Source of the DNA: Patescibacteria group bacterium
Lineage (GTDB): Bacteria; Patescibacteriota; Microgenomatia; UBA1400; PJMF01
Direction: 5' to 3'
DNA: 46,440 nt
Assembly: GCA_018816385.1 (NCBI GenBank)
Contig: JAHIVK010000041.1
Coordinates: forward strand, 1 to 46,440
Below are positions 1 through 46,300 of the stretch, in pieces. The notes under the pieces are model-generated. The model was given only the letters and a program-made list of their open reading frames with translations. It was not told where the DNA came from and made no database searches. The position numbers were made by a program, and so were the translations under genes. Numbering within the stretch: the stretch's first letter is position 1; each line of letters starts with the position of its first letter.

Positions 1-105
1 GCTACTTATGGCATCTTTTATGCATTTTCTTTGCTGGTTCTTCCTCAACCAGCATTGGCTACTATCGTCATCAGAATCAACGAAAATGCTATAAAATCTA
101 TCCAT
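1..105 (-). CDS. Partial small ORF opened by the leader cassette (MDRFYSIFVDSDDDSSQCWLRKNQQRKCIKDAISS..., runs off the window); belongs to a repeat-borne short-ORF family
   Basis: ATG at 103-105 (minus) is directly preceded by the cassette and the frame is open to the window edge. A related 41-codon ORF at 7575-7700 (minus) shares DDDSSQxWLRK and KDAxS. Confidence 0.3.
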   Translation of the reverse strand, partial: MDRFYSIFVDSDDDSSQCWLRKNQQRKCIKDAISS

Positions 106-138
106 AATTAACTCATTTCTTATTTCGCGACAAGTCTA
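1..138. repeat. Left arm of a perfect 138-bp inverted repeat; the partner is 46301-46438 at the opposite window edge
   Basis: The reverse complement of 46301-46438 reads identically to 1-138 (compared base by base). Identity stops at 139 / 46300. The arm contains the conserved leader cassette at 103-138 in minus orientation. Confidence 0.9.
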
Positions 139-214: not shown

Positions 215-243
215 GACTAACACGTTTTTTTTTTGCAGAAAGT

Positions 244-1479
244 CTATTGATGAGGGCCATCAAAAGCATGTCTTTCGGTCATTAATGTTGACAGTAAAAC
301 TGCCAAACTGCCAACCAAAAAGACACTTGTCCAGCCTTTGCCAATCAGAAAGATAACACCCACCACACTCCACATGAGGGTGCCAGCTATAGCTGCAATT
401 ATTTCACTATAAACAAAGTAAGAAAAAGCCTGACTGCCCTTGCCCCGACGCATCATTTGCATTTCAAAAAATAACCAATGGAAATTACCAACTAAAGTGT
501 TGGTGGCATCAATAAAGGCAATCGACCAAGGACTAATAATTTGGGTTCTGAACAACCATAAAACAGACATAATTCCGCCAGAAGTTTTAAAGAGTTTGTG
601 TGAACGAATTTTGTCAATCATGCTGGCCAAGAAAAAAGTAACTAAGAAAGCCATAAATAAGGCTATTGAATACAGATAACCCACTTTATCGACTGACCCC
701 AGGATAAAGAAGACATAGAGTGGCCAAATATAAATAATTGAATCATTGATGTATCTCCCACCCAAAGCCATGGCCAACCGACTATAGCGAGGCTCTCTCA
801 TCCAACTCAAAAATTCTCGCCAACTGATTTGATCTTTCTCAATAGTTGATTCGGTCATCATCGACAAAATCAAACTGACCATAGTGCCGGCAATCCCAAA
901 CAAGAAGAGGACAGACAAACCCAACTGAACCGAGATAAAACCAGCCACTGCTGGAGATAACATAGCTACAATTTGCAACATTAACTGCAAAACACCCAAA
1001 TCAGCTCCCATTTTTGACTTGATGGCATATCGCGAAAGCAGGGTGTAGTAGGTTGGCCAAAAAAGACCTGAGTGAATGGCTTCGAGAAATATGACCAGCC
1101 AAATTAAGTCAGGATATTGACCAGTATAGTAGATGACAACTAGAGAAATAATTCGCATCAAATAACTGGCAGTCATAGTGCGTTGATAACCAAATTTGAC
1201 AAAAAATCGATTGGTGGGAATGAACGTGATTAAGTTGATGATTTTCATCACTAAATAAAATATGACAACCATCAGCATGCCTTTCTGAATATCTGTTAGA
1301 GGTAAATCAGCTAAGACGCTGTTTTTGCCCAGTTCAAATAAATAAATTGGGAAAAAGAAAAAACTCAGTTTGTTAACTAAATCTCGAAAAACCCGATTTA
1401 AGTAAAGTAGTTTTAAATTGCGATTTGAATCGACCCGAATGTTGGACAAATGCAGTAAGTGATCAAGTATTTTGGGCAT
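244..1479 (-). CDS. Polytopic membrane protein, MFS-type transporter-like
   Basis: 411 aa, almost entirely hydrophobic helices (about 10-12 predicted by eye). The ATG is supplied by a leader cassette identical to the one at 103-138. The stop TAG lies in a partial cassette (AGTCTA, 241-246). Confidence 0.5.
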   Translation of the reverse strand: MPKILDHLLHLSNIRVDSNRNLKLLYLNRVFRDLVNKLSFFFFPIYLFELGKNSVLADLPLTDIQKGMLMVVIFYLVMKIINLITFIPTNRFFVKFGYQRTMTASYLMRIISLVVIYYTGQYPDLIWLVIFLEAIHSGLFWPTYYTLLSRYAIKSKMGADLGVLQLMLQIVAMLSPAVAGFISVQLGLSVLFLFGIAGTMVSLILSMMTESTIEKDQISWREFLSWMREPRYSRLAMALGGRYINDSIIYIWPLYVFFILGSVDKVGYLYSIALFMAFLVTFFLASMIDKIRSHKLFKTSGGIMSVLWLFRTQIISPWSIAFIDATNTLVGNFHWLFFEMQMMRRGKGSQAFSYFVYSEIIAAIAGTLMWSVVGVIFLIGKGWTSVFLVGSLAVLLSTLMTERHAFDGPHQ

Positions 1480-1512
1480 AATTAACTCATTTCTTATTTC
1501 GCGACAAGTCTA
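1477..1512 (-). promoter_or_regulatory. Conserved 36-nt leader cassette (TAGACTTGTCGCGAAATAAGAAATGAGTTAATT-ATG) fused to the start codon of 244-1479
   Basis: 36/36 identical to 103-138 and to 46301-46336. A partial tandem copy, TTATTTCGCAGAAAATCTA, follows at 1513-1531. Confidence 0.6.
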
Positions 1513-1536
1513 TTATTTCGCAGAAAATCTATTTAT

Positions 1537-3117: not shown

Positions 3118-3186
3118 TAGACTTTCTGCGAAATAAAAAACGAGTTAATTATGTTAAGATTTTACTTCATTTCGCAGAAAGTCTAT
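3118..3186. repeat. Orphan leader cassette (3118-3153, plus) paired with an inverted partial copy (3170-3186), between convergent genes
   Basis: TAGACTTTCTGCGAAAT (3118-3134) is the exact reverse complement of ATTTCGCAGAAAGTCTA (3170-3186), giving a 17-bp perfect inverted repeat with a 35-nt spacer. The cassette ATG (3151) opens only an 18-codon ORF. Confidence 0.8.
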
Positions 3187-5013: not shown

Positions 5014-5148
5014 AGTGTTATCAGGTATTGTAACTTATTAGACTGCTGGCGAAATATGAGAAACGGTCACTGACAACATCTTTTAAGCAAAGTAGGTAAG
5101 CAAAGTACAACTTGACAAATTGTTATTTGTGTTTTATCCTGTACTTAA

Positions 5149-5703
5149 ATGTCTAGGATAAGAAAAACAAATCAGCAAAAAATCCTTTTAGAACAAGACG
5201 TGAGAATTTTTCGCACCTCTGATCTAGCAGTCTTGTGGGAAACCGAAAATAAAAACACTCTTTGGACCACCATCCGAAGATATATTCAAAGAAGGATTCT
5301 TTATAAAATACACAAAGGATTATATTCCACAATGCCTCTTGAAAAGCTCAATAAGTTCGAGCTTGGTTGTGCTATTTCTGGCCAACTTTCATATGTGAGT
5401 GCCGAAACAGTTTTGCAAAATTCTGGGATCATTATGCAAAATCTAACTCAAATAACCATTTTTGGAAAAAAGAAAAAGCAGTTTGAGATTAATGGCATCT
5501 CATATTTGTGTAGACATTTAAACAATAAATACCTGCTTAATAGAGAAGGTATCGAGGACGGTCAACAATTTTCTATGGCTATTCCAGAGAGAGCCATGGC
5601 AGACATGCTCTATATTAATTCACAATATTTTTTTGATAATGAGTTATCTATTAATAAAAATAAGTTAACAAGTATTACTAAAGAGGTGGGATACCAATGC
5701 TAA
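5149..5703 (+). CDS. AbiEi-like antitoxin / transcriptional regulator (type IV TA)
   Basis: The N-terminus, IFRTSDLAVLWETENKNTLWTTIRRYIQRRILYKIHKGLYS, fits the AbiEi wHTH pattern (...rLvk.G.l.ri.rGlY). It overlaps the AbiEii gene by 7 nt (ATGCTAA), suggesting translational coupling. Confidence 0.7.
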   Translation: MSRIRKTNQQKILLEQDVRIFRTSDLAVLWETENKNTLWTTIRRYIQRRILYKIHKGLYSTMPLEKLNKFELGCAISGQLSYVSAETVLQNSGIIMQNLTQITIFGKKKKQFEINGISYLCRHLNNKYLLNREGIEDGQQFSMAIPERAMADMLYINSQYFFDNELSINKNKLTSITKEVGYQC

Positions 5704-6416
5704 TACCTCAACTGATAGATATCAAACATAAAAACCAAATGTTTCGCCTCTTGCGAGAGATACTCAGAAATACTTTTCTGGCCAATCATTTGTTCTTCAA
5801 GGGTGGGACTTATGCTGCTCTGAGGGGAGTTTTGGATAGGTTTTCAATCGATCTTGATTTTGACCTACCAAACGTTGAATACAAAAACAAGGTGCGGGCT
5901 GAGTGTTACAAAATCTTCCAAAAACTTAACTTGGAAATAAAAGATGAGAGTAAAAATTACTTGCAGTTTTTTCTAAAATATGAATCAAAACCAAATGAAA
6001 GAAACACACTTAAGCTAGAGATTAACGACGAGGTGAATAAGGCGAATACATACGAAAAAGTGCATTTACTTGAGATCAATATGTTTTGTAATGCTCAAAC
6101 ATTAGGCACCATGTTTGCCAATAAATTGATTGCTGCCAAAGCTAGATTTGAAAAAAATGGCAAAATCGCCGGCAGAGATTTCTATGATATTCACCACTTC
6201 TTGCTAGAAAACATGCCTATTAATGAACAAGTAATTCAAGAAAAAACTGGTTTAAGCTTAAATCAATACATGAAAATGTTAAGCTTATTTATCAAAGAAA
6301 ACCTGACCCAAACTGCTTTAAATGAAGATCTTAATCCGTTAATGAAATCACCACAGCTCAGACATGTAGCCCAAAACCTAAAATTGGAACTGCTGGAGTT
6401 TTTGAAAGAATATTAA
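5697..6416 (+). CDS. AbiEii/AbiGii-family nucleotidyltransferase toxin
   Basis: FFKGGTYAALRGVLDRFSIDLDFD matches the AbiEii (DUF1814) NTase motif GGTaL...RfSxDlDf. The locus is visibly AT-rich. Confidence 0.8.
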   Translation: MLIPQLIDIKHKNQMFRLLREILRNTFLANHLFFKGGTYAALRGVLDRFSIDLDFDLPNVEYKNKVRAECYKIFQKLNLEIKDESKNYLQFFLKYESKPNERNTLKLEINDEVNKANTYEKVHLLEINMFCNAQTLGTMFANKLIAAKARFEKNGKIAGRDFYDIHHFLLENMPINEQVIQEKTGLSLNQYMKMLSLFIKENLTQTALNEDLNPLMKSPQLRHVAQNLKLELLEFLKEY

Positions 6417-6461
6417 TCCTCATGTAATAAACCCAGTTGATTTCCTGTAAAATAAGAAAGA

Positions 6462-7569: not shown

Positions 7570-7734
7570 TAGACTTATAGCGAAATAACTAAATAAATAC
7601 TTAATGCATCTTTTGACCATTTTCCCCTTTCTATCTTCCTCAGCCAGCTCTGGCTACTATCGTCATCTAAAAATGGTGAAAATGTATTAAAATCTATCAT
7701 TAATTTCTTTATTTCTTATTTCACTATAAGTCTA
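7570..7734. repeat. Composite repeat element: cassette (plus) + core + cassette (minus); a diverged internal copy of the window-edge repeat
   Basis: TAGACTTATAGCGAAATAA (7570-7588) and TTATTTCACTATAAGTCTA (7716-7734) form a 19-bp inverted repeat with 1 mismatch. The core aligns by eye to 1-102 over most of its length. It carries a 41-codon ORF at 7575-7700 (minus). Confidence 0.75.
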
Positions 7735-7775: not shown

Positions 7776-7951
7776 GGATCCTCCTCTCTACGAGAGGAGG
7801 ATGACGGTCGTGGGCACTTGTCATCCTCGCGCCAGCAAGGGCAACCGTTCCCGTCATCCTCGCGCCAGCGGGGATCCAGAATCACGACTATGGTCACTGG
7901 ATTCCCCCCCGCCTGGGCGGGGGAGAATGACGGTCAAGGGAGGGGAATGAC
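7776..7951. repeat. Cluster of about six GC-rich palindromic hairpin units
   Basis: Examples: GGATCCTCCTCTC-TAC-GAGAGGAGGATGAC; GTCATCCTCGCGCCAGCGGGGATCC; GGATTCCCCCCCGCCTGGGCGGGGGAGAATGAC. These repeats explain the spurious ORF 7758-8114. Confidence 0.85.
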
Positions 7952-11084: not shown

Positions 11085-11291
11085 TTAATCTTTTCTGAGC
11101 TTTATTCCTTGATGCTTGATTCTGATTTCGTATATAGCTGGACGTATAGTAAGTTTCTTAGCAAAAGGTTCATATAACTGACCAGTTTCTGCCAAAATAT
11201 CAGTATAAGCTTTGATTTTTGCACGAACAGCTTTTGGAAATTTACCAATTTCCTTTTCTGCTCTTGAATCGAGTGTGACTTGTTTCTTCAC
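11085..11291 (-). CDS. HigB/Gp49-like toxin, apparently C-terminally truncated (possible remnant)
   Basis: GTG start. LDSRAEKEIGKFPKAVRAKI...IYEIRIKHQG resembles RelE/Gp49-family N-terminal halves. The ORF stops at 68 aa, 23 nt before the antitoxin start. Confidence 0.45.
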   Translation of the reverse strand: MKKQVTLDSRAEKEIGKFPKAVRAKIKAYTDILAETGQLYEPFAKKLTIRPAIYEIRIKHQGIKLRKD

Positions 11292-11335
11292 TCACCATAG
11301 TGTGACATATATGTTACTTTTGTCAAGAATTAGAA

Positions 11336-11395
11336 TAGACTTGTAGTGAAATAAGATTCGTAAGTAGCCGTTGTGCTTATTTTGCTACAAGTCTA
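11336..11395. repeat. Inverted pair of cassette cores between the SpoIID-like stop and the higB-like start
   Basis: TAGACTTGTAGTGAAATAAG (11336-11355) against CTTATTTTGCTACAAGTCTA (11376-11395): a 20-bp inverted repeat with 2 mismatches and a 20-nt spacer containing GTAAGTAGCC (compare the window-edge sequence ATAAGTAGCC). Confidence 0.8.
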
Positions 11396-11397
11396 AT

Positions 11398-13137
11398 TTA
11401 CTTGTGTTCAATATTAAATAGACCAGATTTCAAAGCAATTCTGCCCGGAGCTCGCAGATTGAAAGCTTTATGAAACTCTAAACCCTTGATAGTGACTTCT
11501 CCCCGATCGGTCTGGAATTTAACTTCTGATGTCACGCCATTAGTACTATAAGTCACAGATACATTATTCACTTGATTGTAACCACCACTCAAACCATTAG
11601 CTCTATCTTTGAGCTCATTGATCGAATAAGGATTGCCTCCCCAGCAACCACCGCTAGGAGTGACTCGATCATCACTTTGACCATTTTTAATAATCACCAC
11701 CCAAGCATTAATCACATCAGCCATTTCTTGACCAGTTAACCAAGGATGAGATCGACCACAACTATCACCTGACCGGCTTTTATACCAGCCTTTATAAAAC
11801 CAAGGACTTTCGGCAATTTTTTCATAAGCCCCAGAGGTCCAACCCTCTCGACCATTTTGGGTGTCCCAAAAACCAGGCGTGCTATAACCATTGCCAGAGT
11901 ATGATTCTTGATAACCACCAGATGTGCTGGCATACCAAGTCGAAAAAGGCTGACCATTGGCATAGACCACTTTGCCCCGAGTCTCGTTGACGGCTTTTTC
12001 CCAGTTACCCCCTTTGGGATTGGGTTTAAAAACCTGGCAACTTTCGGTGGCACAGATTGAACCACCTCGAGCTAAAGCATAACTGCGAGCCGCGATGGCT
12101 TGGGCCTTGAGAGCTTCCATGCCTCCTTCATCTCCCCAACTGCTAGGAACTTCGTAAATTCTTTTAGCGTACTCTTCCAGTGAGTAAGTGCCATAACCCT
12201 GAACATTAATTTGGGCATCTGGGTTGTGATCTTTAATCTCAATCCCGCCACCATAATAGGCTCGTAAAATTTCCTCATAACTTTGACCACTCTTGGCTCG
12301 ACCCAAAGCTCCGTACTGACTCATGCCTTTAAAGTGAGGCGCTCCAAATGAAAAGGCGGCAAAAGCTGGACTAAATCCTGGATTGTAATCAGGCCGGCTA
12401 GCCGGGTCATCGGCCAAAGGCACATCACCGACCGTGGTTTGAAAAGTGCCAGATTTCTGAGATAGAATTTCTTGCTGTCTGGCGGAAAGCTCGGCAATCT
12501 GACTGGATAATTTCTGCTGATAATCCTTAGCTTTAGCAATCTCATCTTTAAAGAACTCAACCTGACTATCCAGTTGTTTTTCTAACTTGGCCAAGATAAC
12601 CTGGCGATCTTCATAAGCCTGTTTATCTCGCTCCAAGCCCACAATATCCTCACCAATGGTCTGGACTAACTGCCGATCTTGAGCTTTGATGGAACTGCGA
12701 TAAGCTAAATCTTTGGTCAACTGACCAGCCGTATCACTAGCCATGACAGATAAAAGTGGACTAGCCGATCGCCCTCGTTTGTACTGCTCTCCTACCCTGC
12801 GAGCAAATAGTTGATAGGAAACGGCTAAATCCAGCTCTCTCTGCTTAATGTTCTGGGCAGTTAAAATAGCCTGCTGTTTGGCTTGGGCAATACCGGCTCG
12901 GGCCGAGGCAATGCGGACCGTGAGACCGGCCACTTCTTTTTCCAAAGGTGTAGTGGCATCAGCCGATAGTTTGCGCAGTTTTTCCAGTTCGTTGATTTGT
13001 TGTTGCAGATCTGTGACTGGATCAATGGCCCGGGTTATAAACACTTGCCAATTCGGTCTCACCCCACTCAAGCCAGCCAACAAAGCCAGCAGGACCAGCC
13101 AAACACCCAGTTTTGTGGTTAGATTTATCTTGGGCAT
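11398..13137 (-). CDS. SpoIID/LytB-domain cell-wall protein with an N-terminal signal anchor and coiled coil
   Basis: The N-terminal TM is LGVWLVLLALLAGL. A Q/E/K-rich coiled coil follows. The SpoIID-like segment is YSLEEYAKRIYEVPSSWGDEGGMEALKAQAIAARSYAL...CATESCQVF. Confidence 0.75.
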   Translation of the reverse strand: MPKINLTTKLGVWLVLLALLAGLSGVRPNWQVFITRAIDPVTDLQQQINELEKLRKLSADATTPLEKEVAGLTVRIASARAGIAQAKQQAILTAQNIKQRELDLAVSYQLFARRVGEQYKRGRSASPLLSVMASDTAGQLTKDLAYRSSIKAQDRQLVQTIGEDIVGLERDKQAYEDRQVILAKLEKQLDSQVEFFKDEIAKAKDYQQKLSSQIAELSARQQEILSQKSGTFQTTVGDVPLADDPASRPDYNPGFSPAFAAFSFGAPHFKGMSQYGALGRAKSGQSYEEILRAYYGGGIEIKDHNPDAQINVQGYGTYSLEEYAKRIYEVPSSWGDEGGMEALKAQAIAARSYALARGGSICATESCQVFKPNPKGGNWEKAVNETRGKVVYANGQPFSTWYASTSGGYQESYSGNGYSTPGFWDTQNGREGWTSGAYEKIAESPWFYKGWYKSRSGDSCGRSHPWLTGQEMADVINAWVVIIKNGQSDDRVTPSGGCWGGNPYSINELKDRANGLSGGYNQVNNVSVTYSTNGVTSEVKFQTDRGEVTIKGLEFHKAFNLRAPGRIALKSGLFNIEHK

Positions 13138-13390: not shown

Positions 13391-14623
13391 ATGAAGTTAT
13401 TTTCACAAATATTAAGCGGATTACTTATATCAATGGTGGTTTTTACTGGAACTGGTCAATTTAATTTGGCAAAAGCTACAGGCAAGTGTGATGTAGAAGA
13501 ATTTATTGGTGAAACAAGTTTACCAAATGAAGTTCTGCTTGGAACTGAGATATCGATGAATTTTAAAGTTACTTTAAAAAATAACGTCCTGGCGAATAAC
13601 GCCCAATACACTGTTAAAATTGAAAAAGGTTCCGGTAATTTCGACCCGGTTGGTACTGCTGTAGCATCGGGTGGTTCAATAACGTTTACTGGAGAATATA
13701 AGTTTACAGATGAGAAAGAAAAGTTTTATTTAATCATTTCTGGACCGGGTTTGGAAAATTTTTTGTCTTTGACTAATGGATGCTCAATTCACGAGTTTCG
13801 CCAAGTAAGTGGGCTTAAAAATCTTAGTTACAAAAATATATATATCAAACAAACAAGAGATGGTAAAACCTGTTACGGAGGATTTGGAACTGCTAGCAAC
13901 AGTTGCCTGGAAACTGGTAGTCCTTTTGAAGTAATTATTCAAGGTTTATTATATGGACGATCAATTTGGGCGAACCAAAAGGTCTGGGTCGGATTAGATA
14001 CAGGGCTAGGTACGTCTTCGCTATTAACAACTGATAGCAGTGGTAATCTTGATCCAATATCATATCATTCAAATAAAGTTGGATCTCATACTTTATATGT
14101 TGAATACCCCAGTGGTGCATTTCAAACAGGATTAGGAACCAGCAACTTTTTTTATAAAAAACAATTTTATTTAAGCTCTAATTGTAATCCAGATCAGTGC
14201 GATCAAACAGAACCTACCTACACTGGTTCGGACAATATAGCTAGCGTGCCATATAAAATTTGTGACCAAATTGATCAAAACAAATTCAAAGAATTATATG
14301 ATAATTGTATCACTTGTGTTGGTGATGACGAGGAAGGTCGAGAAGGTGTCTGGACCGCGATTGGTTGTATTAAAAAAGACCCCATCCAAATAGTTCAAAA
14401 TCTAATTAGAATTGGTTTGGGTATGGGGGGAGGTGTGGCCCTACTGATGATTCTGGCCTCTGGATTTATTTTTTCCATTTCTCAAGGTGACCCCAAAAAA
14501 GTCGGCGATGCTAAAGAAATGGTCGTCGCGGCCGTGACAGGCTTGTTGTTTGTGATTTTTTCTGTCACCATTCTGGAGTTTATTGGTTACTCGGTCTTTC
14601 GCATACCAGGGTTTGGAGGGTAA
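13391..14623 (+). CDS. Secreted protein with a C-terminal T4SS pilin-like (VirB2/TrbC-like) two-helix module (paralogue 1)
   Basis: It has a signal peptide. The C-terminus reads GGGVALLMILASGFIFSISQGDPKKVGDAKEMVVAAVTGLLFVIFSV: hydrophobic helix, short basic loop, hydrophobic helix, as in paralogues 2-11. Confidence 0.6.
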   Translation: MKLFSQILSGLLISMVVFTGTGQFNLAKATGKCDVEEFIGETSLPNEVLLGTEISMNFKVTLKNNVLANNAQYTVKIEKGSGNFDPVGTAVASGGSITFTGEYKFTDEKEKFYLIISGPGLENFLSLTNGCSIHEFRQVSGLKNLSYKNIYIKQTRDGKTCYGGFGTASNSCLETGSPFEVIIQGLLYGRSIWANQKVWVGLDTGLGTSSLLTTDSSGNLDPISYHSNKVGSHTLYVEYPSGAFQTGLGTSNFFYKKQFYLSSNCNPDQCDQTEPTYTGSDNIASVPYKICDQIDQNKFKELYDNCITCVGDDEEGREGVWTAIGCIKKDPIQIVQNLIRIGLGMGGGVALLMILASGFIFSISQGDPKKVGDAKEMVVAAVTGLLFVIFSVTILEFIGYSVFRIPGFGG

Positions 14624-14635
14624 AAAAATAACAAA

Positions 14636-15670
14636 ATGAAAAAATTAATCAAGATATTCAAGCAGTTAACAATAGGTGGAATGTTCGCACTTGCGCTTTG
14701 TTTGGGATTTGTAACTCAAGTTAAGGCAGTAGATTGCGCCAAAATATACGACAGATGGAACACTCTATTTTTTTGTGATCTCAATAACAACCAAGCATCA
14801 GATCAAGGAGAAAAGCCCTATACCATCTGTGCTACAAATCAGATTGGTCAACCGTGTTGTGCCGGAACTAGTGATTTAGCAGTATCAGCTTGTGCGCAGA
14901 TAATTTCTCCACCACTTTGCGGAGTCACCCGTTATTCAAGTGTCATAATAGGACACTACTGTGATACAAACCTAAATTCTAAACTCGATGTCTTTGACAA
15001 CACAAGAAATGAGGGTATATTTACCGACTGTGTTGGATCACCCTCTCGTCGAGAGAGTCACCCATGTTGCATTGGTCCTGATGCCATAGCAAAATGTACT
15101 CAGGCTCTATCTCCCACTGCGATTCCCGCTACGATTCCTACTCCCATAACCTTGGCTTGCGGTAATACATTTCCACAAGCTCAAATAGCATCAACTACTT
15201 GTACTTGCCCCCATCCAATTAAAGCAATGGAAGAAAATGATTTATATTGTTGCGGATGGATTGATCCCAGTGATAAAACAAAGTGCCTAAAAACTAACCC
15301 TGGCGGAATTGAGCATCCTTTTGATGCGCCTTCTAGCGAAACTTTTGATTCTCTGAATCCCTTGTGGATTGGCGGAGGAGATTCAATCCAAGATGCAACT
15401 GGCGCCACGTCTCCATACGCCAGCGACCTTTCCACCCCAGGGGGCATCATTTCTCGCTTACTTGACTTTATCTTCCCCATCGCCGGCTTAATCTTATTTG
15501 TCATGCTGGTTTGGGGTGGCTTTGAAATGTTGATTGGAGCTCCCACCAAGAAATCAATTGAAGCTGGCAAAAATCGCATCACTGCCGCCATCATTGGCTT
15601 CCTATTGCTGTTTGCCTCATACTGGTTAATGCAAATTGTGGAAGTAGTATTTGGTATAGTGGTTTTATAA
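14636..15670 (+). CDS. Secreted Cys-rich protein with a C-terminal pilin-like module (paralogue 2)
   Basis: Signal peptide ending VKA. Many Cys residues. The C-terminus is LILFVMLVWGGFEMLIGAPTKKSIEAGKNRITAAIIGFLLLFASYW. Confidence 0.6.
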   Translation: MKKLIKIFKQLTIGGMFALALCLGFVTQVKAVDCAKIYDRWNTLFFCDLNNNQASDQGEKPYTICATNQIGQPCCAGTSDLAVSACAQIISPPLCGVTRYSSVIIGHYCDTNLNSKLDVFDNTRNEGIFTDCVGSPSRRESHPCCIGPDAIAKCTQALSPTAIPATIPTPITLACGNTFPQAQIASTTCTCPHPIKAMEENDLYCCGWIDPSDKTKCLKTNPGGIEHPFDAPSSETFDSLNPLWIGGGDSIQDATGATSPYASDLSTPGGIISRLLDFIFPIAGLILFVMLVWGGFEMLIGAPTKKSIEAGKNRITAAIIGFLLLFASYWLMQIVEVVFGIVVL

Positions 15671-15694
15671 TAGACTTACTGCGAAAATAGACTT

Positions 15695-16060
15695 ATGTTT
15701 AACCTCATTTCTCAAGCGCAAGCCCAAGTTGCCAGTCAAGGTGGTTGTAATCCTGGCGAAGGTGGTCTTAATCTAGGAGACTGTCTCCAGTTGAGTGATA
15801 GCACTCACGTCAGTAGCAAATACAGTTCTTTAAGCTTTCTGGTAAATTTAGTGGTGCGTAATGTTTTTGTCATTGCTGGTATTGGATTGTTTATCATGTT
15901 TTTTGTAGCCGGTTTCCAGTTTATTGCTAAAGGCAAACAAGGCATTGAAGATGCCAAGCAAACAGCCACGGCGGCTGTCTTGGGTTTTGTGATTATGTTT
16001 TGCGCCTACTGGATAGTGCAGCTTGTGAAATATATCACTGACACCAATATTTTGCTTTAA
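15695..16060 (+). CDS. T4SS pilin-like protein (paralogue 3)
   Basis: 121 aa with FIMFFVAGFQFIAKGKQGIEDAKQTATAAVLGFVIMFCAYW. A short cassette (TAGACTTACTGCGAAAATAGACTT-ATG) lies upstream. Confidence 0.65.
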   Translation: MFNLISQAQAQVASQGGCNPGEGGLNLGDCLQLSDSTHVSSKYSSLSFLVNLVVRNVFVIAGIGLFIMFFVAGFQFIAKGKQGIEDAKQTATAAVLGFVIMFCAYWIVQLVKYITDTNILL

Positions 16061-16067
16061 AAAAATT

Positions 16068-16448
16068 ATGCTAACTCCATCCACCCTCCTCGCTCAAGCT
16101 CCTCAACTGGAAGACGTGGTGGGCATGATTGACACTCCACCCGGCATCGACAAGCAAATTACTGCCGCCGGTATAGGACCCGGAGATAACGCATTGTTAT
16201 TTTTTATTTCTAATCTCTTACGAATTGCCACTATTCTGGTCGGAGTCTGGGTATTGTTTAATGTCCTGCTGGCGGGCTACGATTTTATTTCTTCACAAGG
16301 TAAATCAGACGCATATCAAAAAGTGCGTGATAAATTGACAATGAGTGTGATTGGCTTACTGTTGATCACAGTGGCTTACACCATTGGTGGCTTGATCGGA
16401 TTAATTTTGTTTGGGGATGCCGGCTATCTACTTAATCCGCAGTTTTAG
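16068..16448 (+). CDS. T4SS pilin-like protein (paralogue 4)
   Basis: 126 aa with VWVLFNVLLAGYDFISSQGKSDAYQKVRDKLTMSVIGLLLITVAY. Confidence 0.65.
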   Translation: MLTPSTLLAQAPQLEDVVGMIDTPPGIDKQITAAGIGPGDNALLFFISNLLRIATILVGVWVLFNVLLAGYDFISSQGKSDAYQKVRDKLTMSVIGLLLITVAYTIGGLIGLILFGDAGYLLNPQF

Positions 16449-16501
16449 ATAAATAGACTTATAGCGAAATAAGAAACGAAATCAGAAAGCTCGAGCAAGC
16501 A

Positions 16502-17164
16502 ATGAAACAACATCGTCATAAATTTAACTTTCATTATCATCTTTGCAAGTTCATCATGGGCGTGGGAGTTGGAAGCTTATTTCTGATTGTTGGTTTAACT
16601 GGATTGGGAACGTTCAATATCTCTTTTGTTTCTGATGTACGGGCAGTGGCCTGTACTCCGCCTCAATGCGGGACAGATGGTTGTTATGATAAGTGCGGAG
16701 GTGGCTGTACTTATCAGGGTCAATGCATTAGTAATCGCTTGTGTCAAGTTTCCACCGTTGGGAAAGAAAGGTGGTTGGTGCTTTCAGTAGCAGGATGTGG
16801 TTCAACCGTGGTGGGCAAAATCAAGATGCCCGATGGGGTAGCGGACTATAACGCTCAAGCCGCCCTAGGCGGAGGTAGAATCGGCGTTATCCTGTTTGCC
16901 TCTCGCCTGCTTAACATCTTAACCATTATTGCCGGCCTGTGGGTGATGGCCAACTTTATGATAGGTGGTTTTGAGTTTGTGGTGGGTGCTGGCAACGCCG
17001 AAACCATGGGCAAAGTTAAAGAAAAAATTATGTTTAGCTTAGTGGGCATTATTTTGATCGTGGCCGCCTACAGCGTGGCCGGCGTCATTGGCCTCATCTT
17101 CTTTGGCGATGCCGGCTTTATCTTGAAACCCGACATCAGTCAATATGGAGCCTTGGCGCCTTAA
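16502..17164 (+). CDS. T4SS pilin-like protein with an N-terminal Cys-rich module (paralogue 5)
   Basis: CTPPQCGTDGCYDKCGGGCTYQGQC is followed by LWVMANFMIGGFEFVVGAGNAETMGKVKEKIMFSLVGIILIVAAY. A partial cassette lies at 16454-16480. Confidence 0.65.
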   Translation: MKQHRHKFNFHYHLCKFIMGVGVGSLFLIVGLTGLGTFNISFVSDVRAVACTPPQCGTDGCYDKCGGGCTYQGQCISNRLCQVSTVGKERWLVLSVAGCGSTVVGKIKMPDGVADYNAQAALGGGRIGVILFASRLLNILTIIAGLWVMANFMIGGFEFVVGAGNAETMGKVKEKIMFSLVGIILIVAAYSVAGVIGLIFFGDAGFILKPDISQYGALAP

Positions 17165-17328
17165 AAAATAGGTATCAATGTGAGGTATATTAAACTTAAA
17201 TCAACGCTTCCCTTATTTTGCCACAGGTCTAATGCAAATTTGAACGGCGCAAGTTCTATAAAACTTAGGTATAATTAAATAGAGTGGTGATAAAATAGAC
17301 TTGTCGCGAAATAAGAAACGAGTTAATT

Positions 17329-17709
17329 ATGCCTCAGACAACCCTCCAGCTAGCTCAATTTGGCGATCAAGGTCTCATGCCACCAGTGGTTAACGATTAC
17401 ACCAGGGGTGTAGCTGAAGGTGAAACAGCTTTTTCCAGTTTGGAGTTAATTATTTCCAACGTGATTGGCCTGCTCACCACCATTGGTGCCATCATGTTCA
17501 TCCTCTACTTTATCTTGGGAGCCATTAGTTGGATCGGCTCTGGTGGCGATAAGGGCAAGCTAGAGTCTGCCCGCAATCAGATGATGCATGGAGCGCTGGG
17601 CTTGATCATTATTGTGAGCGCTTATGCCATCATTGGCTTGATTGGCCGAGTGGTAGGATTGGATATCTTGAGTCTGGCCGATCAGCTAAAAAAGTTAACA
17701 CCTAACTGA
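17329..17709 (+). CDS. T4SS pilin-like protein (paralogue 6)
   Basis: FILYFILGAISWIGSGGDKGKLESARNQMMHGALGLIIIVSAY. The ATG is supplied by a full cassette at 17296-17331. Confidence 0.7.
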   Translation: MPQTTLQLAQFGDQGLMPPVVNDYTRGVAEGETAFSSLELIISNVIGLLTTIGAIMFILYFILGAISWIGSGGDKGKLESARNQMMHGALGLIIIVSAYAIIGLIGRVVGLDILSLADQLKKLTPN

Positions 17710-17801
17710 ATTGGATCTTATAAATAAACAAGGCAAATATAGATTGGTGGCAAAATAAAAAAATAGCCGATTAGATCTGTCGAAAAATAAGAAACGAGTT
17801 C

Positions 17802-18353
17802 ATGATGAATAAATTTAAGAGCGCTTTAGTTAATTTTGATCACAATAGCCAAAGATTTTCTTTTTCAATTAGTCAAGTTAGTACGAAGGTGCCATTTCTT
17901 AAATTGTTACTCACGATCGTGGTTGGATCTGCTTTTTTACTCAACACTGCCTTTTCCAATCCTGTTCGGGCCGATATTATCAATCCGGCCGTTGGCACCT
18001 TGGGTGGCTGTCAGCCTGGTGACGGTGAGTGTGTGGAAAATCCAGTGGCCATTGACCAAGTTAAGTCCGGCGCCACTTTTCTGTTGCAGTTTGTTAAACT
18101 CTGGCGCAACACCATCAACCTGGGCGCCATCATGGTCCTGCTTTACTTTATTTGGGGAGCGGTGGAGTGGATTAGCTCTGGAGGTGACAAAAATAAGCTG
18201 GAGAGTGCTCGCAACAAGATGTTGCATGCAGTCTTGGGGCTGATTATCCTGGTGAGCTCGTTTGTGATCATTGGTTTTATTAGCGGTGGTCTGTTTGCCA
18301 AAAATTTTGATATATTAAATCTGCAGTTTTTTACCCCGGGAGAGGGCTCATAG
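17802..18353 (+). CDS. T4SS pilin-like protein (paralogue 7)
   Basis: VLLYFIWGAVEWISSGGDKNKLESARNKMLHAVLGLIILVSSF. It has a signal anchor. The cassette lies at 17772-17804. Confidence 0.7.
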   Translation: MMNKFKSALVNFDHNSQRFSFSISQVSTKVPFLKLLLTIVVGSAFLLNTAFSNPVRADIINPAVGTLGGCQPGDGECVENPVAIDQVKSGATFLLQFVKLWRNTINLGAIMVLLYFIWGAVEWISSGGDKNKLESARNKMLHAVLGLIILVSSFVIIGFISGGLFAKNFDILNLQFFTPGEGS

Positions 18354-18455
18354 AATTTGGCAGTGAAAAACAAAATATCAGACATAAAATCAAATCAGAT
18401 AAACTGATAGCTAGTTATAAAGAGACCTGTAGCGAAATTAAGAAACGAGTTAATT

Positions 18456-18968
18456 ATGCCTCAAACTTTACTGCTCGCCTCTACTCAACTGGCCGAGGCC
18501 CTGCCTTTTAACATTGGAGAAAAGGCCCAGGACATTATTCCCATGATCGGGGCCAGCAACTCCGGCGATGACTCGTACCGTTCCAACTTTTCATATCTTG
18601 TCACCAGTCTGATGAGCTTCATCATGGCCATCGCCGCTCTGGCCGTCCTGTTGTTTTTGCTGTTTGGAGCCATCGAATGGATTAGTTCCGGCGGCGATAA
18701 AAACAAACTGGAGTCCGCCCGCAACAAGATGATGCACGCGGCTTTAGGAATTATTATTCTCTCGGCTACCACCGCTATCTTTATGGTCATCCAACAGTTT
18801 GTGGGCATTAGAGTGATTAATTTTGTTGGAGGAAGCGCGCCAAATTACTCTTATGCTTGCATGGATGTACATGCTTGTGGAATCATAAATGGTAATGTGG
18901 TAGTTGATAATAACGGCACTTGTCGGGGCGGATGTGCTCATTCTAATATCTGTTGTCAATCTAATTAG
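18456..18968 (+). CDS. T4SS pilin-like protein with a C-terminal Cys-rich extension (paralogue 8)
   Basis: LLFLLFGAIEWISSGGDKNKLESARNKMMHAALGIIILSATT, then ...YACMDVHACG...GTCRGGCAHSNICCQSN. The cassette lies at 18421-18458. Confidence 0.7.
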   Translation: MPQTLLLASTQLAEALPFNIGEKAQDIIPMIGASNSGDDSYRSNFSYLVTSLMSFIMAIAALAVLLFLLFGAIEWISSGGDKNKLESARNKMMHAALGIIILSATTAIFMVIQQFVGIRVINFVGGSAPNYSYACMDVHACGIINGNVVVDNNGTCRGGCAHSNICCQSN

Positions 18969-18989
18969 TAGTCATTAAAAAATCCGAGC

Positions 18990-19019
18990 TTGACTATTGA
19001 GAAATCTACCCTATATAAT
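18990..19019 (+). promoter_or_regulatory. Near-consensus sigma70-type promoter upstream of pilin paralogue 9
   Basis: TTGACT (18990-18995) and TATAAT (19014-19019) are 18 nt apart; the alternative -10 TATATA is 16 nt away. AAGGA lies 9 nt before the ATG at 19080. Confidence 0.5.
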
Positions 19020-19079
19020 GAAATTATCTAATCGCTACTTAAAAAAGTCTGGTACTAACATAAAAAAGGATATATATAT

Positions 19080-19517
19080 ATGAAACAGACACTGCAAAAA
19101 TACGGGTTGACGGCCGTTGTCACCCTAGCCGGCTTGGCTTCAAGCGCGGGAGCCGTCTTTGCCCAAGCTGGTGGCAATACGGGTATTAATATCGGTACCA
19201 CTACACTAGCTAAAGGCTTTGCCGGTGATTTGGGCTCAATCATTACTGGGGCGCTGGGCTTCATCATGGCCATTGCCGCTCTGTTGGTTTTTCTCTACCT
19301 GATTTTGGGAGGCATCCAGTGGATTACCTCCGGTGGAGACAAAGGCAAGACGGAAGAGGCTCGCAACAAGATCACGTCAGCGGTGATTGGTTTAATTGTG
19401 CTGGCCGCGGCCTACGCTGTCCTGCAAATTATGTTGGGATTCCTTGGCTTAACTTCTATCACTGATGCTTTCAAGAATATTAAAGTGATTGATAGTACAA
19501 GAGATGGACCTGTCTAA
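19080..19517 (+). CDS. T4SS pilin-like protein (paralogue 9), candidate major pilin
   Basis: Signal peptide ending VFAQA|GG. LVFLYLILGGIQWITSGGDKGKTEEARNKITSAVIGLIVLAAAY. It has its own promoter-like site and is followed by a strong intrinsic terminator. Confidence 0.7.
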   Translation: MKQTLQKYGLTAVVTLAGLASSAGAVFAQAGGNTGINIGTTTLAKGFAGDLGSIITGALGFIMAIAALLVFLYLILGGIQWITSGGDKGKTEEARNKITSAVIGLIVLAAAYAVLQIMLGFLGLTSITDAFKNIKVIDSTRDGPV

Positions 19518-19538
19518 TTGGGGTTTTTTGGTGAAGTT

Positions 19539-19574
19539 TAAACCCCCTGCCTTTTGGTAGGGGGTTTTTGATTT
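19539..19574 (+). terminator. Rho-independent terminator after pilin paralogue 9
   Basis: AAACCCCCTGCC-TTTT-GGTAGGGGGTTT forms a 12-bp stem (one G-U pair) with a 4-nt loop, running into TTTTTGATTTT. Confidence 0.8.
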
Positions 19575-19783
19575 TAACACGAGGTTTTGCACTGCTTGAT
19601 TATTCCTGACTTCGCCAATTACGTTACCCAACAGCCTGAAAACATTTAGCGAAAGTTAATACCTGACTTTCGTACTTAACCCAGATCAGGCTTATCACTG
19701 GTTCTCTTATTTTGGGACAGGTCTACCAAACCAACTCACTGCGAGTTCGTGTTTCCCATCAGAATAAGGTATAATCAACCATT

Positions 19784-20302
19784 ATGACAATTAAAAAAAA
19801 TCTGGCTGTCTTTTCCCTAATCTTTGGGTTGGCGTTGGGTCTTTTTTTTGGAGCCTCGCCCGCTCTAGCCAGTGGTTTAAAAACTAGCACTGACTCAACC
19901 TCAGGTCAAGTTGAAACCACCACTCAAGACGAGGCCACTTTTCTCACTACCAACATTGCCAATCAGGGAGTAGCTGAAACTCTCTTCACTTTGCCAGTGG
20001 GTTTTGCCAGAAACCTAGGCATCTGGATCACTGGTGTGGCAAGTTTATTGATTGCCATCATTGTGTTACTGGTTTTCTTCCAGCTGATCATGGGCGGCTT
20101 CTCCTGGATAACTTCAGGCGGAGATAAGGGCAAAACTGATGAAGCCAGAAACAGATTGGTGGCGGCCATTATTGGTCTATTAATCATCGCCGCTTCATAT
20201 GCAGTGTTAGTTGTGCTACTTAGATTCATAGGTTTTGAATCAGTCAGCGATGCTTTTAATAACATTCGACCCATCAGCTCTAATCCTAGTGTCCTCAGAT
20301 AA
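19784..20302 (+). CDS. T4SS pilin-like protein (paralogue 10)
   Basis: Signal peptide ending ALA|SG. VFFQLIMGGFSWITSGGDKGKTDEARNRLVAAIIGLLIIAASY. A TATAAT at 19770-19775 ends 8 nt before the ATG. Confidence 0.7.
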   Translation: MTIKKNLAVFSLIFGLALGLFFGASPALASGLKTSTDSTSGQVETTTQDEATFLTTNIANQGVAETLFTLPVGFARNLGIWITGVASLLIAIIVLLVFFQLIMGGFSWITSGGDKGKTDEARNRLVAAIIGLLIIAASYAVLVVLLRFIGFESVSDAFNNIRPISSNPSVLR

Positions 20303-20310
20303 TCAAAGCT

Positions 20311-20724
20311 ATGTTTAGCCTCAAACTGTTCAAGCTAACTTGCAAAACTCTTAGCACTTCCGCTATAGCCTTATTGTTGAGCGCCTCGCCCATCTATGCT
20401 CAACAAAGAGCTTGGACAGGAGTCTGCGTCGGAAGCGCTGATAGCGATGTGGCCACGATTCAGGGCCTGGAGTGTTTGATTGCCAATGTCTTTACAGTCA
20501 TCATCACTCTAATTGGCGTAGCGGCCTTTGTCATGTTTGTAGTTGGATCTCTAACCTGGTTAACTGCTGGTGGCAATTCCAACAACATGGAAAAGGCCAA
20601 AAAATCTTTTACTTACGCCGTGGTGGGCATCGTGGTGGCTTTAAGCGCTTTTATTATCATCAATTTGATTGCCTCTTTTACCGGCGTCAACATTATTCGC
20701 AACTTCTCCATTCCCACTTCTTAA
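20311..20724 (+). CDS. T4SS pilin-like protein (paralogue 11)
   Basis: Signal peptide ending IYAQQ. FVMFVVGSLTWLTAGGNSNNMEKAKKSFTYAVVGIVVALSAF. Confidence 0.65.
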   Translation: MFSLKLFKLTCKTLSTSAIALLLSASPIYAQQRAWTGVCVGSADSDVATIQGLECLIANVFTVIITLIGVAAFVMFVVGSLTWLTAGGNSNNMEKAKKSFTYAVVGIVVALSAFIIINLIASFTGVNIIRNFSIPTS

Positions 20725-38136: not shown

Positions 38137-38400
38137 ATTAAATTCCTGTGTGTTTTAAATGCATCAAACTTCTTGAGAAATAATGGAAACGATAAAATGG
38201 CAATTGTCCTAGGATGACATAAGTTTAAGTTTTTATTTCGAAAGAAGTTTGATGCATTTCATAGACAAACGCTTTCCACAGTGTTTAAATAATTGACGAT
38301 TTGGTCTGTCGATCAGGTAATAAAATCTGCTAGAATGAGTTTGTCATTAAGCTTGCAGTAAAGTTCAACAGCTTTGCTGTGGATTATATGTAGACTGCCC

Positions 38401-43132: not shown

Positions 43133-43200
43133 GTCATCCTCGCGCAACGGGGAATGACAATTCGCCCGTCATCCTCCCCGCCCAGGCGGGGGGGGGATCC
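43133..43200. repeat. Two GC-rich palindromic hairpin units immediately upstream of dnaA
   Basis: GTCATCCTCGCGCAACGGGGAATGAC and GTCATCCTCCCCGCCCAGGCGGGGGGGGGATCC. The second includes a 9-G run at 43188-43196. Confidence 0.85.
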
Positions 43201-43217: not shown

Positions 43218-44720
43218 ATGCAAACATTCGACCAAGTAGAACTCAGTCAAATTTGGAAAAAAACCTGTCAAAAACTGAGGCAGGAGTTGTCGCCAGCAGT
43301 TTATAACACCTGGATTGTGGCTAACCCGGCTAGCCAAATTGTGATGACCAACCCAGACTCTGCCCAAGTCACTATCTCTAGTCCCACGGCATTTCACTCT
43401 ACCAATTTAAAGAAGAACCTTCATCCCACGTTGGTAGTAGCCCTCGAATCAGTTTTGCAAGCTAAAGTTGAAGTTGAGTATCAGGTGGGTCAGCGACTTA
43501 AGCCAGTTTTGGGCGACCAAGCACAAAGCCAAAACTTAGAACCCAAAGATTTAAACCAAGAAAATTACTTTGCCTCAAACCATAGTCCCAGAGAATCGTT
43601 TAGTCCTGGCCAATCGCCTAGAGCAGAAGATCTTTTTTCCCAACAAACCATCCAATCAACCAGGGAAGACAGGATTAGGGCCAAAGCCCAAAGCATTGGT
43701 TTAAAAACCGATTATATTTTTGAAAGTTTTGCAGTTTCCACCAGCAACGAAATGGCTCACGCGGCGGCAGTGGCCGTCTCCAACAATCCAGCCACTTCAT
43801 ACAACCCCCTCTTCTTCTATGGGGGCGTGGGGGTGGGTAAAACCCACCTGATGCATGCCATTGCTCACAATATTTTAAAAAGAGATTTTGACGTCAAAAT
43901 TGTCTACTGTACCGGCGAGGAGTTTACCAACGAGATAGTTCAGGCCATTCAAACCAAAAGAGCTAGTAATTTTAAACTTAAATATCGGTCGGCTCAAGTT
44001 TTGCTAATTGATGACATCCAATTTATTGCCGGCAAAAATGCGGTTCAAGAAGAATTTTTTCACACCTTCAACGCCTTGATTAAACAAAATAGCCAAGTTG
44101 TTTTAACATCCGATCGTCCGCCTCAAGAAATTTCCCTGCTGGAAAGTCGCTTGAGAAGTCGGTTTGAGGCGGGGTTGATGGTTGATATTCAACAACCTTC
44201 TTTTGAACTCAGAACGGCTATTTTGTTGGTCAAATCTCAGGCCGCCAACCTACCCATCCCCATTGAGTTGGCCAAAATTGTCGCTTCTCGAGTTGAAAGT
44301 GCCCGCAAAATTGAGGGCATTATTACTAGTATTAGATCTGAGGTAGAACTAAAAGGTAAACAAATTACTCCAGAACTAATAGAAAAAATTTTGAGTCTTG
44401 AAACCAAGCGGGCTCGACCAGGCATTACTGCCAGTCCGGGACAAGTCATTCGAGCAGTGGCTAATCATTTTAAACTCAAACAATCCGCCCTCAGGGGTAC
44501 TAGGCGGGTCAAACACATCGTGTTTGCCCGCCATATAGCCATGTATATTCTCAAGGAAGAATTATCTTTACCTCTAGCCGAAATTGGCCGCTGGTTTTCT
44601 GATCGAGATCACACATCTATTCTCTACGCCACTCGGAAAATTAGTCAAGAAATCAGGGTTAATGACCAGATGTTTCAGGACGTTTCTGCCCTGCGCACCA
44701 CTTTGGCTTTGGTTGGGTAG
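43218..44720 (+). CDS. dnaA: Chromosomal replication initiator protein DnaA
   Basis: NPLFFYGGVGVGKTHLMHAIAH (Walker A), LLIDDIQFIAGK (Walker B), TSDRPP, and the domain IV segment RHIAMYILKE...IGRWFSDRDHTSILYATRKI. Confidence 0.95.
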   Translation: MQTFDQVELSQIWKKTCQKLRQELSPAVYNTWIVANPASQIVMTNPDSAQVTISSPTAFHSTNLKKNLHPTLVVALESVLQAKVEVEYQVGQRLKPVLGDQAQSQNLEPKDLNQENYFASNHSPRESFSPGQSPRAEDLFSQQTIQSTREDRIRAKAQSIGLKTDYIFESFAVSTSNEMAHAAAVAVSNNPATSYNPLFFYGGVGVGKTHLMHAIAHNILKRDFDVKIVYCTGEEFTNEIVQAIQTKRASNFKLKYRSAQVLLIDDIQFIAGKNAVQEEFFHTFNALIKQNSQVVLTSDRPPQEISLLESRLRSRFEAGLMVDIQQPSFELRTAILLVKSQAANLPIPIELAKIVASRVESARKIEGIITSIRSEVELKGKQITPELIEKILSLETKRARPGITASPGQVIRAVANHFKLKQSALRGTRRVKHIVFARHIAMYILKEELSLPLAEIGRWFSDRDHTSILYATRKISQEIRVNDQMFQDVSALRTTLALVG

Positions 44721-44723
44721 GGG

Positions 44724-44891
44724 TTTTCCACAAATGTGGAAAGGGCTGGGCGAAAGTTCTGGAAAAGATGTGAATAAACGTGGAAAAATATTAACAAAGA
44801 GTGGGGTTTTAAACCAAGTTTTTCCTCCCCACCCAATAAATCGGAGAATTTTCTCCACAAAAACGGACGGAGAAACTCTCACCCAATCCAC
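44724..44891. promoter_or_regulatory. Candidate oriC: cluster of six DnaA-box-like 9-mers in the dnaA-dnaN spacer
   Basis: Each box is listed with its mismatches to TTATCCACA. TTTTCCACA 44724-44732 (1 mm). Reverse CTTTCCACA 44735-44743 (2 mm). Reverse TTATTCACA 44769-44777 (1 mm). Reverse TTTTCCACG 44779-44787 (2 mm). TTCTCCACA 44851-44859 (1 mm). CAATCCACA 44883-44891 (2 mm). An AT-rich stretch at 44950-44975 follows. Confidence 0.6.
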
Positions 44892-45012
44892 ATTGATCTA
44901 CTTGATAATTGGAGCCGGTTTTTCCCCGATTTACATAAGGCCTACTACTAAGACTACTAATATATATTACAATATGCACTAGACTCTTTGCGAAATGAGG
45001 ACAAATTTTGTT

Positions 45013-45114
45013 GTCATTCTCCGACCGCAGGGAGGGGAATCTAGGAGTAACCACTCGCTACTGGACCCCCACCGCCTGGGCGGGGAGGATGACGGATGAA
45101 ATCGCGAGGATGAC
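45013..45114. repeat. GC-rich palindromic hairpin units upstream of dnaN
   Basis: GTCATTCTCCGACCGCAGGGAGGGGAATC; GGACCCCCACCGCCTGGGCGGGGAGGATGAC; ...CGCGAGGATGAC. Confidence 0.85.
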
Positions 45115-45154
45115 ACACTCAGAAGTAATCATTAATAAGAAACTTTAAAGAGCC

Positions 45155-46264: not shown

Positions 46265-46300
46265 GCTCCTTGCTAAATAATGACATCGCTGGGAGGGGAA

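Follow-up and report, generated by a model that had tools for sequence, protein, structure and literature searches.

Why does one short sequence ending in ATG recur between the genes of a Patescibacteria group bacterium, and how did it come to stand directly in front of the start codons of unrelated genes? This question is raised by contig JAHIVK010000041.1 of assembly GCA_018816385.1, whose 46,440 nucleotides were analyzed at full length and are referred to as the window below. A first-pass annotation had described a cassette of about 36 nt that recurs at least 15 times, only between genes, and often donates the start codon, and had considered it a shared 5' leader, operator, or translation-initiation module, or a miniature mobile promoter-plus-start cassette, rather than a plain sigma70 promoter. 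As detailed below, the core of the repeat is very probably the terminal inverted repeat (TIR) of a miniature inverted-repeat transposable element (MITE) of about 165 bp that lacks a transposase, is flanked by TA, and derives from the IS5 family. Such an element is of a known kind, little described in Patescibacteria, and in the literature searched we found no relevant published description of MITEs in Patescibacteria or the Candidate Phyla Radiation (CPR), or of the TIR string.

Occurrence and anatomy of the repeat

The 36-mer TAGACTTGTCGCGAAATAAGAAA[C/T]GAGTTAATTATG is present in four copies with at most one mismatch (103-138 and 1477-1512 on the minus strand, 17296-17331 and 46301-46336 on the plus strand), with a chance expectation of 0 in shuffled sequences, and near-full copies lie at 3118-3153, 17772-17807, and 18422-18458. 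The 20-nt core TAGACyTnnnGCrAAATAAG was found about 20 times in the window at up to 5-6 mismatches, confined to 1-20 kb and 44.9-46.4 kb, and the stretch from 20 to 44.9 kb is free of copies. The annotated genes take up 89.7% of the window, and every core copy is in the remaining ~10%; three copies overlap a gene, each touching only its stop codon. The TAG of the repeat doubles as the stop codon of the gene for a major facilitator superfamily (MFS) transporter, of dnaN, and of one gene in locus L091. Both the number of recurrences and the restriction to spacers had been recognized correctly, with two corrections: the three identical copies read AAATGAG and not AAACGAG, and the copy given as 19697-19716 is actually at 19706-19725.

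Convergent, inverted pairs of the core bound three units in the window, which are 165 bp (7570-7734), 68 bp (3118-3185), and 60 bp (11336-11395) long. The near-full copy at 3118-3153, formerly regarded as an orphan, is indeed present, but it is part of the 68-bp unit. The 36-nt cassette corresponds to nt 1-36 of the 165-bp element and comprises the 20-nt TIR and 16 nt of the left arm, ending in ATG. As single-stranded DNA, the 165-bp element is predicted to form one long hairpin with a dG of -40.2 kcal/mol, as compared to -11.5 +/- 2.6 kcal/mol in shuffles (z = -11.2). All copies are flanked by TA...TA; a longer target duplication is absent, and the TA could formally belong to the TIR. Remnants break off at 20, 27, 45, 48, and 77 nt, and this variation indicates that internal deletions are frequent.

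Positions 1-138 and 46301-46438 form an inverted repeat that is perfect over 138 nt and has its start exactly at TAGACT. In the same-species locus L083, a complete 165-bp element with perfect 20-bp TIRs lies 3' of dnaN, beyond the end of our window, and in the same-species locus L107, a complete 165-bp element, again with perfect 20-bp TIRs, occupies the site equivalent to the other window end. Both ends of the window therefore fall within copies of an assembly-breaking repeat. Contigs of other same-species assemblies also stop at or near the repeat 5' of pilin 6, and identical DnaN, MFS, and pilin proteins are encoded in two metagenome-assembled genomes (MAGs) of this species at NCBI. The window itself corresponds to contig k141_792002 in the ENA assembly ERZ27247128. 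The open reading frames (ORFs) at the two edges, taken earlier for unrelated genes, are spurious, as they belong to truncated copies of one and the same 165-bp element, and only the MFS copy among the three identical copies precedes a gene, which does away with the argument that these copies stand before different coding sequences. In locus L083, a public 82-aa gene call (11180-11428) starts at the ATG of the MITE and extends beyond the element, and this call, too, is almost certainly spurious.

The only ORF within the 165-bp element (MxRFYSIxVxSDDDSS...) was considered as a possible peptide gene and rejected, as its stop positions vary, its loop is invariant at the DNA level, and its variable codons pair with the other arm.

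Absence from a sister species and polymorphism among strains

The sister-species contig Ga0210057_1001344 shows synteny over about the first half of the window (77% identity in pilin 6, 82% in the MFS transporter) and contains 0 copies of the core at up to 5 mismatches. At the site of the 7570-7734 copy, it reads GGTAGAA-TA-GCTCAAGTCTGATATG, which is an empty single TA site. Within the species, the sequence just outside the repeat upstream of pilin 6 varies: strain GCA_043825415.1 has an additional full MITE there, is longer by a further 38 nt, and differs in the variable triplet, and another strain lacks 18 nt directly at the outer end of the repeat. In Joint Genome Institute (JGI) metagenomes, the 24-mer ending in ATG was found in 14 loci, nearly all within full or internally deleted MITEs and not before genes.

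The element is thus multicopy, intergenic, missing at the orthologous sites of the sister species, polymorphic among strains, and a cause of broken assemblies. With less than ~300 bp, TIRs, no transposase, dispersed copies, a TA duplication with a matching empty site, and insertion polymorphism, it has the features of a MITE.

Relationship to IS5-family insertion sequences

To place the element in a family, species-representative genomes were scanned with a 17-base core. The matches listed were dominated by chance matches in coding sequences (rplB, rpsM, LacI-type genes) and by one insertion sequence (IS) of a Thiotrichaceae bacterium. Also among the matches listed were 128-204-bp units with the same terminal repeat from several bacterial groups, comprising the Patescibacteria loci L005, L021, L023, L079, and L080, with partial copies in L053 and L075, and MAGs labelled Pseudomonadales, as well as Defluviitaleaceae, Anaerolineae, and one deltaproteobacterium.

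In Thiotrichaceae BB3, the same 20-mer terminates a multicopy IS of ~900 bp, whose two ORFs match HTH_Tnp_4 and DDE_Tnp_4/DDE_Tnp_1. The best NCBIfam match of the joined protein is the IS5-family model NF033581 (E 1e-30); with 106.8, the score is below the cut-off of 140 because the Thiotrichaceae copy is split. Homologues of this transposase are annotated as 'IS5 family transposases' of 260-285 aa, mostly on contigs of ~0.9-1 kb. The three homologous loci that we read all had the same type of ends: the transposase gene of Neisseria sp. CP9 is enclosed by TAGACCTTTTGCGAAAGTAT ... ATATTTTCGCAAGAGGTCTA, that of Dolichospermum has TTAGACCTCTTGCATAAGT at either end, and a metagenome copy is bounded by TAGACATCTTGCGAAACTAA. 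A TIR consensus TAGACyTnTTGCGAAA is common to the window element and the Thiotrichaceae, Neisseria, and Dolichospermum copies, and in each of the three loci read, the start codon of the transposase gene is found ~15-45 nt inside the left repeat. In its anatomy of inverted repeat, short leader, and ATG, the cassette is built like the left end of an IS5-family element, and its ATG stands where autonomous relatives have the transposase ATG.

IS5-family elements with HTH_Tnp_4 and DDE_Tnp_1/DDE_Tnp_4 transposases are ~0.9 kb long, and the members that duplicate TA constitute the IS427/IS1301-like group. The TA...TA flanks without a longer duplication fit this group. Thus, the window element resembles these ISs in its TIR consensus, its TA flanks, and an ATG shortly inside the left repeat, and differs from them in being a transposase-less 165-bp hairpin for which no autonomous copy was found in the lineage loci searched.

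Two aspects weigh against this derivation. When the Thiotrichaceae transposase was used as a tblastn query, a transposase with this TIR was found neither in the window nor in any fetched Patescibacteria locus, and the matches were from Thiotrichaceae only; the same-species sequence read for a cognate transposase consisted of this contig and a few others. Moreover, the putative link to IS5 is drawn from TIR similarity to elements of other phyla. Plasmids gave no blastn match to the Thiotrichaceae IS or to the MITE, and a scan of viral contigs was without match. Reduced Patescibacteria genomes would, on the reading that we prefer, still host an active-looking MITE family that is tied to IS5-type elements across several phyla.

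The Thiotrichaceae BB3 MAG itself is fragmented by its ~900-bp IS5-family element, as more than 25 contigs end within 500 nt of it (loci L001-L078).

Copies that touch start codons

If the repeat is a transposon end, it has to be explained how it came to abut the start codons of resident genes. The N-terminus MP(K/R)... of the MFS transporter is kept across ten homologues, and for pilins 6 and 8 the alignment with the N-termini of the sister orthologues is free of gaps, which identifies the ATG at these three copies as the native start. In the sister species, the pth stop and the MFS ATG are separated by 7 nt, pilin 6 is preceded by TAGGTATAAT (a TATAAT box) and 12 nt, pilin 8 follows after a 5-nt gap, and the pilin 3 junction reads TAAAATAT-ATG. 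In the window, left-end remnants occupy the corresponding gaps of the MFS gene and pilins 3, 6, and 8, and each of them ends precisely at the ATG. The ancestral starts were T-ATG in all four cases. At pilin 5, where the ancestral start was C-ATG, the remnant does not abut the ATG. Pilin 7 differs, as its sister orthologue is 23 aa shorter than the window ORF, and the ATG borne by the repeat may not be the native start. Donation of the start codon, as annotated earlier, hence corresponds to a native ATG at the MFS gene and pilins 6 and 8, does not apply to the edge ORFs, and is doubtful at pilin 7.

A sequence of events that could have produced these junctions begins with the insertion of the MITE at the TA within a start that reads T|ATG, which would preserve the start codon, just as an insertion into a TAA or TAG stop would preserve a stop. 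A slippage deletion stimulated by the hairpin, between the TATG of the element (nt 33-36) and the TATG of the junction, would then leave 33 nt and the ATG. What remained would be 33 nt of the A-rich, unstructured left arm as a new 5' untranslated region (UTR), by which a short-leader or translationally coupled gene would become a leadered gene. We infer such an insertion-then-deletion origin from the comparison of the junctions. The start-codon remnants are a clear-cut natural case in which a transposon end has replaced the entire 5' region of resident genes, and the affected genes include a type IV secretion pilin operon that was split up by the element.

A Shine-Dalgarno-like motif is present in only about 8 of 37 window genes, and many genes have TATAAT, TACAAT, or GATATAAT 8-14 nt before the start codon; these -10-like boxes suggest that very short leaders are used in this genome. 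The remnants appear to exchange a very short leader or a coupled junction for an A-rich leader of ~33-60 nt without a Shine-Dalgarno sequence. That the cassette lacks GGAGG had been noted before and is correct, as only GAG is present, but this is not a special property, since a Shine-Dalgarno sequence is missing from the majority of the window genes.

Two observations count against the proposed course of events. T is found at position -1 in about half of the window genes, so that four T-ATG starts out of four are weak support (p about 0.06), and pilins 6 and 8 share the codon 2 CCT, which differs in the sister species and is left unexplained by the deletion model.

Covariation of the hairpin and hints of function as RNA

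Nine full copies with a mean column identity of 86% were used for a covariation analysis, a small sample of related sequences. In the consensus hairpin, 95.2% of the cells are paired. Changes on both sides of a pair were found in 24 of 58 pairs, as compared to 9.6 +/- 1.8 in shuffles, none of which reached 24 (0/500), and to no more than 7 in slid controls. The variable triplet of the repeat changes from copy to copy, but complementarity inside any one copy is preserved. On the cassette-sense strand, 25 G.U cells stand against 4 A.C cells. Furthermore, 11 of the 12 full or mini copies point in the same direction as the flanking gene or genes, and the orientation of the copies in the window follows transcription and not the position relative to the dnaA-dnaN origin region.

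Together, covariation, G.U bias, and co-orientation suggest that transcripts of the element are used in one orientation, and full copies are probably co-transcribed with the neighboring genes and fold as RNA hairpins. The G.U bias shrinks to 11 versus 4 when counted by column, from related sequences, which speaks against this interpretation, and homogenization of the arms of a DNA palindrome could be an alternative source of the covariation.

One may go further and suppose that the left arm of the MITE is a portable translation-initiation region that was repeatedly installed on unrelated genes, and that the full element acts as a sense-strand RNA hairpin in operon transcripts. We regard this proposal as rather doubtful, also as both roles of the copies, 5' UTR and RNA hairpin, are deduced from sequence. 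If it were true, the same 33-nt A-rich leader on unrelated genes would amount to a rewiring of a genome that mostly uses very short leaders.

Other explanations for the repeat

A portable promoter would be another explanation. TAGACT, which fits TAnnnT, would then be a -10 box with a transcript start ~20 nt before the ATG, spread by the MITE in a Correia-like manner; the organism seemingly uses -10-dominated promoters near start codons, and new promoters would be useful in a pilin operon that was ancestrally continuous and became split by insertions. However, a sigma-70 and terminator scan of 13.0-20.9 kb placed no site in any cassette, with counts equal to those of shuffles, a TG extension and a consistent -35 element are absent, and TAGACT alone matches at 4 of 6 positions. 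In addition, pilin 6 already has the canonical TAGGTATAAT box 5' of its copy, the sister species has kept this box, and many copies are at the 3' ends of genes. We therefore consider a portable promoter improbable, in agreement with the earlier view that the cassette is not a plain sigma70 promoter. From the former proposal of a miniature mobile promoter-plus-start cassette, mobility is retained, as the repeat is a mobile-element end that makes up the whole 5' region up to the start in three or four places, but the scan flagged no promoter in it. A promoter formed at the junction of abutted ends was also considered and rejected, as inspection revealed no -35-like hexamer at the right spacing.

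The position of copies directly 5' of start codons, their co-orientation with the genes, and the fact that the 3' part is best conserved in solo copies would favor a conserved regulatory module (a 5' leader, an operator, or a translation-initiation module) under whose joint control the pilin paralogues stand together with the MFS transporter and other genes. This is largely refuted by the sister orthologues, which lack the repeat despite conserved gene order and N-termini. Strains of the same species differ around the repeat, and with 2/36 differences the cassette is no better conserved between them than the flanking spacer; the metagenomic 24-mers are nearly always part of full MITEs, many copies lie 3' of genes or between convergent genes, and Rfam yielded 0 matches at the gathering score in the window. 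Co-regulation by a conserved module is thus highly unlikely.

Also highly unlikely, finally, are repeats that act as recombination sites or ends of mobile insertion cassettes with the pilins, AbiE, and MFS as passengers. AbiEi/AbiEii are missing in the sister species, and the boundary of this module falls on the outer end of the TIR at 5039; moreover, pilin 5 lies between inverted TIRs (16454 and 17212-17231). However, the AbiE module has no inverted partner TIR and only a degenerate direct one. The sister species has the MFS gene and pilins 3, 5, 6, and 8 at the corresponding positions, where no TIR accompanies them, so that pilins and MFS were rejected as cargo and are resident genes.

Comparison with known systems

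The Correia repeat-enclosed elements (CREE/NEMIS) of Neisseria are palindromic intergenic MITEs of ~100-160 bp with TIRs and TA target duplication; they occur in many copies, are co-transcribed as hairpins with their neighbors, and affect the expression of adjacent genes. Their ends have demonstrated promoters, an IHF site, and RNase III cleavage. The window element is likewise a multicopy, palindromic, intergenic TIR/TA element of similar size. Its TIR sequence is unrelated, however, its host belongs to another phylum, and it is tied to the IS5 family by its TIR; promoters, IHF site, and RNase III cleavage are features of Correia elements, whereas the window element is known from its sequence alone.

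In the nearly precise excision of Tn10/Tn5 and other palindrome-stimulated deletions, short direct repeats on either side of a long inverted repeat are the points between which slippage takes place. The origin that we propose for the solo remnants is similar, with a short piece of the element left behind, but the direct repeat would be only 4 nt (TATG) here, and the process is deduced from sequence comparison. REP, ERIC, BOX, and RUP are also short intergenic hairpin repeats that are transcribed in operons and keep the complementarity of their arms, but these families lack the TIR described here, and most of them have no clear IS parent. Mobile insertion cassettes of the MIC231 type share the combination of transposase-less IS-type TIRs and passenger-like genes, as seen at the AbiE boundary, but the genes behind most copies in the window are resident and not passengers.

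Copies in the window and neighboring features

The individual copies are compiled in Table 1.

Table 1. Copies and remnants of the MITE in the 46,440-nt window.
Position	Strand	Feature	Remarks
1-138	-	Truncated MITE (left TIR, left arm, loop), 3' of MFS gene	Perfect 138-nt inverted repeat with 46301-46438
227-246	-	Degenerate solo TIR TAGACTTTCTGCAAAAAAAA; TAG is the MFS stop	TTTCTGC subtype, as copy at 3118
1477-1512	-	36-nt left-end remnant against native MFS transporter ATG	Sister: 7 nt between pth and MFS; MP(K/R) N-terminus kept
1512-1531	-	Truncated second TIR TAGATTTTCTGCGAAATAAT, in tandem with 1477 copy; nested or older insertion	
3118-3185	+	68-bp mini-MITE (left TIR, 28 nt of left arm, right TIR) between convergent genes	
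5039-5065	+	Solo left-end remnant facing AbiEi/AbiEii genes	Outer end is the point where sister synteny resumes
7570-7734	-	Full-length 165-bp MITE, left end at 7734	Empty TA site in sister species
11336-11395	+	60-bp mini-MITE (both TIRs, 20 nt of right arm)	Sole copy antisense to local transcription
15671-15694	+	Remnant TAGACTTACTGCGAAAATAGACTT filling the gap from pilin 2 stop to pilin 3 ATG	Sister: TAAAATAT-ATG
16454-16480	+	27-nt left-end remnant 5' of pilin 5, not abutting ATG	
17212-17231	-	Right TIR of a sense-oriented copy, left part lost; right-arm remnant on its left	Compared with MITE right arm
17296-17331	+	36-nt left-end remnant against native pilin 6 ATG	Sister: TAGGTATAATTAAAATACAGTTT-ATG; strains differ just outside the TIR
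17740-17759	+	Degenerate TIR, in tandem with 17772 copy	
17772-17848	+	MITE left arm over 77 nt (77% identity with edge copy), entering pilin 7 ORF	ORF ~23 codons longer
18422-18458	+	Left-end remnant against native pilin 8 ATG	Sister: 5-nt gap, TAATCTTT-ATG
19706-19725	-	Right TIR remnant of a sense-oriented copy, 5' of pilin 10 promoter	
44980-44999	+	Degenerate solo TIR in dnaA-dnaN spacer	
46262-46281	+	Degenerate TIR-like sequence; TAG is the dnaN stop codon	
46301-46440	+	Truncated MITE at window edge, 3' of dnaN	Complete copy in L083 at 11147-11311

Several further features of the window were noticed in the course of this analysis. A second class of repeats consists of G+C-rich hairpins such as GTCATTCCCCCCGCCCTGGCGGGGGGAATCC and GTCATCCTCGCGCCAGCGGGGAT, which are found at 140-208, 2167-2189, 7820-7924, 43133-43195, and 45017-45100; they are often in tandem, often adjoin MITE copies, and have the look of REP-type repeats. 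At 38149-38267, a 119-bp palindromic unit has the ends CAAACTTCTTGAGAAATAA / TTATTTCGAAAGAAGTTTG, which resemble a diverged MITE TIR. The unit is also present in L116 at about 500-640, and a similar one lies in the SpoIID-SMC spacer of the sister species.

AbiEi/AbiEii (5039-6461) constitute a type IV toxin-antitoxin module that is missing in the sister species, where Fic adjoins the DNA ligase gene. Toward the ligase gene, the AbiE insertion is bordered by the outer end of a MITE repeat, and the sister spacer holds a remnant without the repeat that resembles the interior of the MITE.

The region 13391-20724 encodes eleven tandem T4SS_pilin (PF18895) paralogues in an array that the sister species has in compact form and that MITE remnants interrupt in the window. 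The array is followed at 20866-43053 by a cluster of type IV secretion-like genes (PrgI-like, TraC-like, VirB4-like ATPase, and a Peptidase_M23 protein of 1534 aa), which adjoins dnaA-dnaN. The dnaA-dnaN spacer (44720-45155) contains DnaA-box-like sequences TTTTCCACA / TGTGGAAA and is the likely oriC; it also carries one degenerate MITE repeat and G+C-rich hairpins.

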